Assembly (NCBI RefSeq): GCF_003334815.1
Contig: NZ_QOWO01000001.1
Length of the DNA stretch: 64,000 nucleotides
Strand: one strand, 5' to 3'
Source: Escherichia coli
GTDB taxonomy: Bacteria > Pseudomonadota > Gammaproteobacteria > Enterobacterales > Enterobacteriaceae
Both the position numbers and the translations under genes were made by a program. Of this stretch, positions 45,061 to 45,519 are shown piece by piece. Numbering within the stretch: the stretch's first letter is position 1; the number at the start of each line of letters is the position of its first letter. The notes beneath the pieces were generated by a model. That model was not told where the DNA came from. It did not search any database and worked only from the letters and a program-made list of their open reading frames with translations.

Positions 45061-45069
45061 GGTGCCCCC

Positions 45070-45519
45070 TTATGCACTCCGTACCAGGATAGCGCCGCGC
45101 TTCACCGCCTGGCGTTTGGCCCGTTCACCGGAACTGATGCGGCTGGATGGTTGCCACTTCGTGCGTCCCAGGGCGGATGCGTGGCTTTCCGCTTCGTCAC
45201 GCATGATGCGGCCCGCTTCATCGGTCATGTGTTCGAATGCGTTTAAACGGTTGCGAAGGCTTGCCAGCAGGTCGGCTGCTTCGTAGCTGATAGGGTTTTT
45301 CTCTGAAATGGTTTGGAAACGCTTTGTTTCGCTAAGGATCAAACGCGCTTCTTCTTTCATTGATTCGTACAGGTCATGTTTTTTCATAGTATTGGCCGCT
45401 AACAATAGTTGTTGATGATTAAGTGAGTGCGCGCTTTTAGGTGACAGGTGCGGCGCAACCGGTGTGGAATTAGTGGTGGTTTTGACCGTCCAGGATGACC
45501 ACCAACCTGGTTCCAGCAT
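45070..45519 (-). CDS. hypothetical protein (149 aa from ATG at 45519; alternative start at 45387 gives ~105 aa)
   Basis: ORF in operon context; no clear ribosome-binding site for either start; no recognisable domain. Confidence 0.5.
   Translation of the reverse strand: MLEPGWWSSWTVKTTTNSTPVAPHLSPKSAHSLNHQQLLLAANTMKKHDLYESMKEEARLILSETKRFQTISEKNPISYEAADLLASLRNRLNAFEHMTDEAGRIMRDEAESHASALGRTKWQPSSRISSGERAKRQAVKRGAILVRSA

Follow-up and report, generated by a model that had tools for sequence, protein, structure and literature searches.

Genes A and C, two small minus-strand open reading frames (ORFs) that follow one another in the 64,000-nt Escherichia coli sequence analysed here (the window), very probably belong, as independent genes, to the late operon of a fis-integrating phage-inducible chromosomal island (fis PICI) of 9.3 kb and became neighbours through a repeat-mediated 212-bp loss of a third gene, B. 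Their junction is an ordinary operon junction, set in a mildly interesting context. Both are real genes under purifying selection (dN/dS 0.1–0.67), and from the comparisons below we infer that B was lost rather than gained, that gene C uses a Shine-Dalgarno (SD) sequence, and that its translation is coupled to that of A. If A and C became adjacent by deletion of B, the junction would represent neither a split gene nor a recoding site; the verdict of two separate genes without recoding holds whether B was lost or gained. Coordinates of all features are collected in Table 1.

Table 1 Features of the A/C junction and of the surrounding island, in window coordinates.
Feature	Position	Strand	Basis or remark
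att copy 1, AATACGGCATGAACTAA	42465..42481	.	3' end of fis, with the fis stop codon; exact 17-bp repeat
Tail tape measure protein, satellite-encoded, 757 aa	42559..44832	-	phrog_28 E 3e-129; TIGR01760 E 5e-71
Gene C, 68-aa three-helix protein	44854..45060	-	ORF list, homologue alignment, AF2 model
Spacer GGGGGCACC	45061..45069	-	9 nt, non-coding, from gene A stop to gene C start
SD-like UAAGGGGG	45065..45072	-	Overlaps gene A stop, 4 nt before gene C ATG
Remaining repeat copy TGCATAAG, presumed deletion scar	45069..45076	-	Alignment with L002/L003
Gene A, 105-aa helical protein	45070..45387	-	ORF list, homologue alignment; ends with TAA 45072-45070
Upstream extension of the 149-aa ORF	45388..45519	-	Relatives annotated at 105 aa
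54-aa gene, same module	45602..45766	-	YlcI/YnfO E 0.025, below family cut-off
104-aa gene, same module	45770..46084	-	38-41% identical to 106/107-aa genes of L018, L020
294-aa capsid-like protein	46087..46971	-	First gene of conserved late module
cos-like packaging sequence	47278..47350	-	73 bp, 97% identity to HeidiAbel_Bas97 40926-40998
VapE-type primase/helicase	47972..49660	-	phrog_2249 E 1e-82; replication zone
AlpA-family regulator/excisionase	49934..50113	-	PGAP helix-turn-helix/AlpA; relatives match Pfam Phage_AlpA
Tyrosine integrase, 411 aa by PGAP start	50408..51643	-	PGAP; relatives match Phage_integrase, Arm-DNA-bind_3
att copy 2, AATACGGCATGAACTAA	51811..51827	.	Exact 17-bp repeat; closes island

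On the minus strand the window reads ...CTG GTA CGG AGT GCA TAA GGG GGC ACC ATG CTG GAC..., with the gene A stop codon (45072-45070) followed by the spacer (45069-45061) and the gene C start codon (45060-45058), the stop and the start being 12 nt apart in a common frame. The starting observation of the earlier note, two same-frame ORFs with only TAA and three codons between them, is borne out by this sequence, and the note was also right that no frameshift is involved (same frame, TAA plus 9 nt between). The 68-aa ORF starting at 45060 is present in the program-made ORF list, and PGAP calls both ORFs in identical islands. Strains UPEC85, SZQ1, and MY1-8 carry such an identical island. Gene A is 149 aa in its longest form in that list (45070-45519), a length that we correct to 105 aa: the conserved product starts at the ATG at 45387, where every relative begins MK(K/N)HDLYE, and PGAP annotates 105 aa in relatives L002, L003, L010, L011, and L012. 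Homologues of gene A form 22 clusters of 81–149 aa, 20 of which lie within 81–112 aa. In L003 the extension region holds a 54-nt indel and, by our reading of the alignment, is closed by an in-frame TGA. The extension is probably not translated in the window.

In all genera, each of the two genes has a start and conserved termini of its own. Gene A (dN/dS 0.11–0.35) carries a basic C-terminal tail, GERAKRQAVKRGAILVR, that is invariant across the homologue alignment, while gene C (dN/dS 0.16–0.67; 16 clusters of homologues, 55–74 aa) has the conserved C-terminus ALQLAAAALRAAGEHTLAENLLN and an AF2 model of three helices (pLDDT 79). These properties bear on one possibility raised earlier, that a recent nonsense mutation split a single larger gene, as the common frame and the short interval of a stop and three codons might suggest. 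Purifying selection acts on A and C as separate units, with no relaxed selection on either supposed fragment, and no A–C fusion occurs among the 16 clusters of C homologues and 22 clusters of A homologues. Nor did a fusion appear when 1.84 billion representatives were searched exhaustively by profile: 14 matches were 67–121 aa long, and one further match was a 5362-aa repetitive outlier. The fused ORF that the earlier note proposed to seek in homologous islands is absent there, and most relatives hold a whole extra gene, B, between A and C, in a frame that differs from that of A. Nor would the undivided gene reach the ~220 aa once suggested: because gene A starts at the ATG at 45387, the hypothetical fusion would measure only ~176 aa. 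On the comparative data, a nonsense split is almost certainly wrong.

Programmed stop-codon read-through, yielding a minor A–C fusion beside A and C, would draw on the in-frame arrangement of the junction in four of six relative lineages (E. coli, 9-nt spacer; Klebsiella, 9; Cronobacter, 18; and L004, 0). The frame is broken, however, in Salmonella (TAG and 8 nt) and L015 (TAA and 20 nt), and with a prior of 1/3 the binomial P(≥4 of 6) is ~0.10, by our own arithmetic and for lineages that are non-independent. The shared frame of A and C is no more than chance expectation. Because the gene upstream of C in most relatives is B rather than A, an A–C fusion cannot be a conserved product. Spacer variants among relatives (gggggcacc, ggggcaacc, gggtgcacc, gggggtacc, ggggaaatc) further reveal a middle codon that varies freely (GGC, GCA, TGC, GGT, GAA) next to a G-run that is kept, a pattern that fits an SD sequence and not coding sequence. 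The RNA around the gene A stop has no unusual structure that might stimulate read-through (z = -1.1), and the stop itself is UAA followed by G, a context expected to terminate efficiently in E. coli. On this comparative evidence we regard read-through as highly improbable; among the three options that had been offered for the junction (nonsense split, read-through, or coincidence), coincidence survives and the other two do not.

Gene C would instead be translated from its own start. The gene A stop and the spacer together form the strong SD-like UAAGGGGG, which would pair with the anti-SD, and with this element 4 nt before the ATG, ribosomes could initiate de novo or re-initiate after translating A (coupling). 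The (T)A(A/G)GGGG motif is conserved at the E. coli, Klebsiella, and Salmonella junctions regardless of which gene lies upstream. Homologues consistently form distinct genes, each behind a ribosome-binding site of its own, the outcome that the earlier note had named as refuting its idea. On the minus strand, the interval between A and C contains neither promoter-like nor terminator-like sites. The arrangement is that of coupled adjacent genes with an SD sequence over the upstream stop (stop inside UAAGGGGG, 9-nt gap, one operon, no terminator between), and nothing sets the window junction apart from these, coupling itself being the predicted element. The 4-nt distance between the SD-like sequence and the ATG is below the usual optimum and counts against our preferred explanation.

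Of the 60 listed E. coli relatives, 49 have gene B (68–71 aa) in the interval that separates A from C and the other 11 have two genes; the A-B-C layout recurs in islands of Klebsiella, Salmonella, Enterobacter, and Cronobacter as well as in one metagenome relative. When the window is aligned with L002 and L003, a clean 212-column gap appears where gene B (69 aa) stands, and its edges in both relatives, where genes A and B end, are marked by the 8-bp direct repeat (C/T)GCATAAG; the same repeat is found in L012. The repeat owes its existence solely to the common ending of A and B, ...GCA TAA G, in which the neighbouring genes share their last codon, stop, and next base. The ancestral order would then have been A-B-C-tape measure gene, with B a variable 68–71-aa gene that the window lineage lost by a 212-bp deletion between the two repeat copies. 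Such a deletion would have set the gene A stop at the exact former site of the gene B stop, and since the one stop replaced the other, the TAA, the 9 nt, the ATG, and the shared frame would all be those of the old B/C junction. Two-gene forms, where the stop belongs to A, and three-gene forms, where it belongs to B, have nearly the same sequence from the stop through spacer and ATG into gene C.

The direction of change, loss of B, is argued from parsimony, B being present in every genus sampled, and from the geometry of the repeat. We consider it very unlikely that the two-gene layout is ancestral and that B was inserted in other lineages, which would make the window junction the original A/C junction. 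This reading could appeal to the variability of the slot between A and C, occupied by B in enterobacteria and by a small terminase and a 71-aa gene in L020, and to B, which at 34–61% identity has diverged further than A or C. Yet B occurs in Klebsiella, Salmonella, Enterobacter, Cronobacter, and most E. coli, where its divergence follows the genera; two-gene forms are found solely among E. coli sublineages and in the L004 type; and the missing segment has the direct repeat exactly at its limits, a signature of slippage or microhomology deletion. Loss of B, as a clean natural case of a small gene excised via an 8-bp repeat, may have happened more than once. In L004, TGA is followed immediately by ATG, a junction unlike that of the window, and this lineage appears to have lost B independently. 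The two-gene junction is the same in the window type and in two further E. coli sequence lineages, pM121-3 and PEC422, a pattern that may reflect either one recombination-spread deletion or recurrent deletions.

In enterobacterial islands, gene C always lies directly upstream of the tape measure gene, which in the window starts 21 nt after it. This downstream gene, described earlier as tape-measure-like, encodes a true tape measure protein (Table 1), aligned over its full length at 58–60% identity to the tape measures of ECOO78/ep3/HeidiAbel_Bas97-type myophages, and it has mosaic alleles. The earlier note had compared the position of A and C to that of phage chaperone pairs made by recoding. 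Programmed -1 frameshift chaperones (lambda G/GT, P2 E/E+E'; Phage_TAC_7) are likewise two small ORFs directly before the tape measure gene, but the analogy finds no support on three counts: A and C have no frameshift geometry (same frame, no overlap, and by our reading of the sequence no X XXY YYZ slippery heptamer in the last codons of gene A), they have no chaperone domain, and their relatives also occur where the island has no tape measure gene at all, as an A-like protein in L018 and as A-like and C-like proteins in L020/L021. The candidate helper phage has a 94-aa Phage_TAC_7 gene, followed by a -1 extension that ends at the tape measure ATG, and a slippery A AAT TTT by our reading of its sequence.

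Pfam (E ≤ 0.001), PHROGs, and NCBIfam yielded no tail-assembly-chaperone domain in A, B, C, or their neighbours; as a positive control, the same Pfam search gives Phage_TAC_7 (E 5e-17) in the phage gene before the homologous tape measure. Aligned with hhalign to the chaperone of the helper-type phage, the A, B, and C profiles reached probabilities of 1.4% or less. One such match, of B over 16 residues (ITFGMRDITASDKP against PVLRMREPTVADQE, 1.4% probability), was dismissed as insignificant. The gene C model has no fold match in the PDB by Foldseek (E > 7), a 68-aa helical model being weak evidence in itself. A and/or C could still be non-canonical chaperones for the island tape measure, in parallel with the tmp-tac pairs of PLE satellites but made as separate proteins without recoding. 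The constant position of C before the tape measure gene would fit, as would the small size and helical nature of A and C, which have no other assignment, and the precedent of PLE satellites, which are reported to encode a tape measure and a chaperone and to build chimeric tails (PMC11838301). The lack of any chaperone family, hhalign, or fold match speaks against it, however, as do the A-like and, in L020, C-like proteins that sit beside a capsid-like gene in islands without a tape measure, and the candidate helper's own E/E' frameshift chaperone. We judge this chaperone role distinctly unlikely.

Comparison with PHROGs, NCBIfam, PADLOC, Pfam (on a concatenate), and PDB sequences (by profile) returned nothing significant for B or C and placed A in no family, and in 50,697 phage genomes tblastn matched neither A nor C. 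We suspect a role for A and C in virion assembly or packaging rather than in tail chaperoning because of the company they keep, which includes a capsid-like gene and a cos site and, in one distant relative, TerS. The A-like proteins of L018 and L020 adjoin the capsid-like gene, next to a small terminase as well in L020. More specifically, A and C, with a dispensable B, might be satellite-specific assembly factors that steer the island's capsid-like protein and/or tape measure into helper-built virions. This proposal is unlikely as it stands; if it held, particles would be chimeric and loss of B would tune the function, with the in-frame junction still incidental. An Rpp-type packaging redirector was also considered for A or C and set aside, as their profiles match no PDB sequence; RppA and RppC are 144–153 aa long, with a solved structure.

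The island spans 42482-51827 (9346 bp) between exact 17-bp direct repeats, and all genes assigned to it lie on the minus strand, the sole plus-strand ORF called by PGAP (47406-47735) being doubtful. A and C lie in its late zone, within a module conserved across genera, and the 'cargo' label given to them before, which would imply variable cargo, is wrong for them. The 294-aa protein of this module is probably HK97-fold and capsid-like according to structural modelling. Its AF2 model is poor (pLDDT 51), with major capsid proteins as the top Foldseek matches in BFVD (E 1e-4, 7e-4, and 3e-3) and a phage capsid, encapsulins, and the P4 procapsid as top PDB matches, none of them significant. Its C-terminus aligns to that of a phage major head protein (hhalign E 0.06), and its L020 homologue has a faint Phage_capsid_4 match; the assignment is provisional because the model is of low confidence. 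The 54-aa protein is possibly a ribbon-helix-helix regulator, judging from its sequence. A gene of similar size holds its position in almost all relatives examined, including a 60-aa counterpart in L020 (weak by blastp, E 0.08), with none called there in L018. The 54-, 104-, and 294-aa proteins gave nothing significant in PHROGs, NCBIfam, PADLOC, Pfam, or PDB-sequence profiles, and weak matches to JetB (E 0.024), PD-T4-6 (E 0.029), and YlcI/YnfO (E 0.025) were treated as noise. No Rfam family was found in the island.

Several parts of the island point to its candidate helper. The cos-like stretch, conserved in all island relatives, corresponds in HeidiAbel_Bas97 (40926-40998) to non-coding sequence between the spanin and terS genes, and because of this position we infer a functional cos site. 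Blastp of island proteins against six-frame ORFs of the candidate helper gave strong matches for the tape measure and the primase, the latter sharing 65% identity with its phage Bas97 counterpart over the C-terminal 400 aa, and a weak one for the integrase (25%, E 3e-9); A, B, C, and the 54-, 104-, and 294-aa proteins had no match there.

By its sequence the island is a fis-integrating PICI satellite, with helper dependence predicted. It shares with described fis PICIs (Tommasini, Mageeney & Williams 2023, PMC10111431) and the EcCICFT073 type (Fillol-Salom 2019, PMC6739421) an att identity block at the 3' end of fis that is duplicated at both island ends (AATACGGCATGAACTAA here, matching the published TACGGCATGAACTAA), along with int-alpA, a primase, and a unidirectional late zone with a helper-copied cos and a capsid-like gene. 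It differs in that this zone closes with a full-length tape measure gene, in its candidate helper, a P2-tailed temperate myophage of the ECOO78/HeidiAbel_Bas97 type rather than lambda or phi80, and in the absence of a recognisable Rpp homologue, by sequence, for A or C. A related fis PICI is reported to excise on mitomycin C. Vibrionaceae PICMI (PMC10803314) similarly have a 17-bp direct repeat at the fis end and an int-alpA-primase core, but the window primase is VapE-type (PF05272) and not DUF3987/DUF5906, and the island is larger (9.3 kb) and not minimalist, given its capsid-like, cos, and tape measure functions.

Satellite-encoded tape measures have been reported only recently, in the Vibrio cholerae PLE, whose tmp-tac(-bhuB) cluster builds chimeric tails (PMC11838301), and in EPIP mycobacterial satellites (10.64898/2025.12.02.691453). 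As in these, the window tape measure is homologous to that of the helper (59% identity, 757 aa vs. 785 aa in the helper-type phage). If it were built into virions, the difference in length would by our estimate make tails ~4 nm shorter, at the ~1.5 Å per residue commonly given for tape measures. Unlike PLE, the window island lacks any recognisable chaperone or baseplate hub beside its tape measure, A and C occur among relatives independently of a tape measure gene, and no counterpart of the HK97-TAC-like fold of PLE tac was seen, a comparison made for C by predicted fold and for A by sequence only. The reading of the A/C junction given here mainly helps to avoid a false pseudogene or recoding annotation at this position, and the enterobacterial island family, whose putative helper belongs to the BASEL phage collection, could offer a tractable system in E. 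coli for the study of chimeric-tail assembly. The late module and the cos-like stretch also occur on two 8.9-kb records with a different primase and without integrase or alpA, namely the Logan contig L004 and pM121-3, the latter recorded as a circular plasmid.

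Gene A (105 aa) and gene C (68 aa) share a reading frame, as the earlier note had read directly from the sequence: the minus strand runs ...CTG GTA CGG AGT GCA TAA GGG GGC ACC ATG CTG GAC..., with TAA, nine bases and an ATG between them. At its mechanical maximum the upstream ORF reaches 149 aa; the predicted conserved product of gene A is shorter, 105 aa from the ATG at 45387. MK(K/N)HDLYE is its N-terminus in every relative, 105 aa is the PGAP length in five related islands, and by our reading of the alignment an in-frame TGA closes the 149-aa upstream extension in the relative island L003. 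Gene A and the 54-aa gene are separated by roughly 210 nt of non-coding DNA (45388-45601, minus strand), into which the 149-aa PGAP call for gene A extends; this stretch is strongly conserved among E. coli islands and the Logan contig L004, and part of it is deleted in CE0026f. It matched nothing in Rfam, shows no sigma-70 consensus promoter, and could contain a helper-activated late promoter.

Features of the island and of the A/C junction
Feature	Coordinates	Strand	Remarks
att copy 1, fis 3' end	42465-42481		exact 17-bp repeat AATACGGCATGAACTAA
Tail tape measure protein, 757 aa	42559-44832	minus	phrog_28 E 3e-129, TIGR01760 E 5e-71
Gene C ATG (68-aa ORF)	45060-45058	minus	
Nine-base A/C spacer	45069-45061	minus	
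Gene A stop codon	45072-45070	minus	
294-aa protein	46087-46971	minus	model best matches major capsid proteins
cos-like non-coding stretch, 73 bp	47278-47350		just upstream of 294-aa gene
VapE primase	47972-49660	minus	
att copy 2	51811-51827		exact 17-bp repeat AATACGGCATGAACTAA

Genes A and C are present in 65 of 5,426 complete E. coli genomes. Among the 60 of these that were listed, the A+C segment of the window aligns in two pieces, with three annotated genes, in 49, and in one piece, with two genes, in the other 11 (pM121-3, PEC422 and nine that hardly differ from the window). Alignment to two three-gene islands showed that exactly 212 bp are missing from the window, a segment that holds the 69-aa gene B. 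In the three-gene forms A ends in ...GAG (C/T)GCATAAG AATGG and B in ...AAC (C/T)GCATAAG GGGGC, so that an 8-bp direct repeat brackets the missing segment; the window retains a single copy (45076-45069). The stop codon, spacer and ATG leading into gene C are nearly identical whether they follow A in two-gene forms or B in three-gene forms, which identifies the noted junction as the old B/C junction, now behind A. Deletion between the 8-bp repeats would remove gene B and place A directly before that junction. The three-gene layout also occurs in fis-site islands of Klebsiella, Salmonella, Enterobacter and Cronobacter, and in an island on a metagenome contig in which the insertion site was not captured; given this spread across genera, loss of gene B in an E. 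coli sublineage, rather than gain elsewhere, would be the parsimonious direction. A second lineage, represented by L004 (an 8.9-kb contig), lost B via a different junction, in which TGA is followed directly by ATG. In the APEC37 island (L002, 3186-3397) the gene B start is mutated from ATG to ATA, and PGAP gives a shortened 49-aa product. Together, this start mutation and the two independent deletions suggest that gene B is dispensable. Coincidence, one of the options raised for the shared frame, thus stands, with a concrete history in the repeat-mediated deletion of an intervening gene.

Three other readings of the junction, a split gene, read-through and a recoded chaperone pair, are not supported. 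The proposal that a nonsense mutation split a ~220-aa gene fails on comparison with homologous islands, the check suggested at the outset, which returned separate genes throughout, most often with gene B between them, and no single fused ORF. No A-C fusion was found among 16 clusters of gene C homologues (55-74 aa), 22 clusters of gene A homologues (81-149 aa) or the 1.84 billion representative proteins that were searched exhaustively by profile; that search returned only 14 gene A relatives of 67-121 aa and one 5,362-aa repetitive outlier. With dN/dS of 0.11-0.35 for gene A and 0.16-0.67 for gene C, each is under purifying selection, as separate units.

Stop-codon read-through is disfavored by a frame relation that is not conserved and by a spacer whose middle codon varies freely (GGC, GCA, TGC, GGT, GAA), while the G-run beside the stop is kept. 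The A/C or B/C junction is in frame in E. coli and Klebsiella (9 nt), Cronobacter (18 nt) and L004 (0 nt), and out of frame in Salmonella (TAG + 8 nt) and the metagenome relative L015 (TAA + 20 nt); four in-frame junctions out of six, against a prior of one in three, give P ~0.10 by our own arithmetic, for lineages that are not independent. The stop codon and G-run form UAAGGGGG, 4 nt from the gene C ATG, which can presumably pair with the 16S anti-SD over eight positions, including one G-U pair. The minus strand between A and C has no promoter-like or terminator-like site, the local RNA fold at the junction is unremarkable (z = -1.1), and an Rfam search of the island gave no matches. Most simply, translation of gene C would begin independently, from its own SD, and would probably be coupled to termination on gene A.

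The downstream gene had been called tape-measure-like, and profile matches confirm it (table). Its product is 58-60% identical over the whole length to those of the P2-tailed myophages ECOO78 (genus Jilinvirus), ECO1230-10, ep3, HeidiAbel_Bas97 and Salmonella PT1, and 28 aa shorter than the ECOO78/HeidiAbel_Bas97-type protein (757 vs 785 aa). The alleles form a mosaic: over residues ~120-480, identity is only 23-48% to the allele of strain CE0026f but 75-97% to one from a Klebsiella island, and the last ~280 aa match CE0026f at 89-100%. Lengths in relatives range from 694 to 787 aa. In those phages we take the genes upstream of the tape measure to be sheath and tube, although the records annotate them otherwise. 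A 94-aa gene upstream of the phage tape measure matches Pfam Phage_TAC_7 (E 5e-17), and we read there a slippery A AAT TTT, with the -1 frame extension open up to the base before the tape measure ATG; this is a canonical recoded chaperone, and it served as positive control for the chaperone searches. No chaperone domain was detected in island genes A, B or C with PHROGs, NCBIfam or Pfam, hhalign of the three against the phage chaperone gave probabilities of at most 1.4%, phage genomes held no detectable relatives of A or C, and a three-helix model of gene C (pLDDT 79) had no PDB match. The strongest argument against the chaperone analogy comes from distant A/C relatives, which occur in int-primase islands of other kinds (one with alpA), all lacking a tape measure gene.

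Among these islands, L018 has an A-like gene preceded by genes of 307 and 107 aa. In L020 and L021, genes of 306, 106 and 60 aa are followed by an A-like gene, a small-terminase gene (phrog_57 E 2e-27), one of 71 aa and one resembling C. This gene content defines a conserved unit without the tape measure: the 294-aa and 104-aa genes, in most cases one of 54-60 aa, then A, a variable slot and, again in most cases, C. The tape measure gene joined later, in the enterobacterial branch, and A and C are not tied to it; nor do the two qualify as cargo, as first labeled, since both belong to a unit conserved in distant islands. In L020, a distant non-enterobacterial relative, the terminase and 71-aa gene lie between the A-like and C-like genes (7354-7830, same coordinates in L021), and the A...C bracket is therefore a variable slot able to hold packaging genes. 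The 294-aa protein has no sequence-family match and its model is poor (pLDDT 51). Its best Foldseek matches among viral models (BFVD) are major capsid proteins (E 1e-4, 7e-4, 3e-3). In the PDB it came closest to a mycobacteriophage capsid, encapsulins and the P4 procapsid, none of them at significance, and its C-terminus aligns weakly with that of a phage major head protein (E 0.06). It is probably the capsid gene, captured or diverged, that Gram-negative PICIs typically carry; for fis PICIs, too, a capsid-like gene is typical. A tentative, low-confidence guess places A and C in head assembly or packaging, not in tail chaperoning. This late module, comprising the 294-aa, 104-aa and 54-aa genes, A, C, the tape measure and the cos-like stretch, also occurs on pM121-3 (L010, NZ_CP083588.1, circular, 8,933 bp) and L004 (8,873 bp), with a different PriCT_2/VapE primase and neither integrase nor alpA; these seem to be either the satellite in episomal form or another backbone that has acquired the module.

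The A/C junction itself is ordinary; of greater interest is the PICI around it, which has a tape measure gene. The window is E. coli chromosome (prmA-dusB-fis ... yhdJ-acrEF) with a 9,346-bp island (42482-51827) between fis and yhdJ, ending in exact direct repeats. On the minus strand it encodes integrase, AlpA, a 93-aa gene, the VapE primase and a 74-aa gene, then a non-coding stretch, 294-aa, 104-aa and 54-aa genes, A, C and the tape measure. It is a fis-integrating PICI; ~1% of the complete E. coli genomes have it, 47 of them with coverage >=80%. In Enterobacterales, 3,565 fis PICIs have been mapped, with att identity block TACGGCATGAACTAA and four zones, integration, dynamic, replication and late (Tommasini, Mageeney and Williams, PMC10111431). 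Our repeat agrees with that block, and the island fits these elements, with A and C in its late zone.

The cos-like stretch is 97% identical to the HeidiAbel_Bas97 spanin-terS intergenic stretch (PQ850606.1 40926-40998) and every island relative keeps it, those in Klebsiella, Enterobacter and Salmonella among them. Its counterpart in the phage lies where cos is expected, and the stretch is probably a helper cos site that the island has copied. The primase is a second gene common to island and candidate helper, its C-terminal 400 residues being 65% identical to the HeidiAbel_Bas97 primase (DNA: 76% over 744 bp). From these likenesses we read the island as a putative cos-type satellite of ECOO78/HeidiAbel_Bas97-type temperate myophages. 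Reports of satellite-encoded tape measure proteins are all recent: every V. cholerae PLE has tmp and tac genes and makes chimeric tails (PMC11838301), and mycobacterial EPIP satellites likewise encode a tape measure protein. Like these, the island has its own tape measure protein; unlike PLEs, it has no recognisable chaperone. It resembles Vibrionaceae PICMIs in its fis site and 17-bp repeat, but falls outside their definition on primase family and minimal gene content.

The sole plus-strand ORF annotated by PGAP within the island (47406-47735; 109 aa here, 87 aa in CE0026f) lies beside the cos-like stretch, is oddly composed, gave no homologue matches and may not be a real gene. In the Enterobacter-type contig L014, a second int / DUF6387 / AlpA / AntA-ANT island (9150-12333) lies right behind the tape measure gene, where fis would be expected. 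Two islands seem to be arrayed in tandem at fis here, an arrangement reported for fis PICIs.
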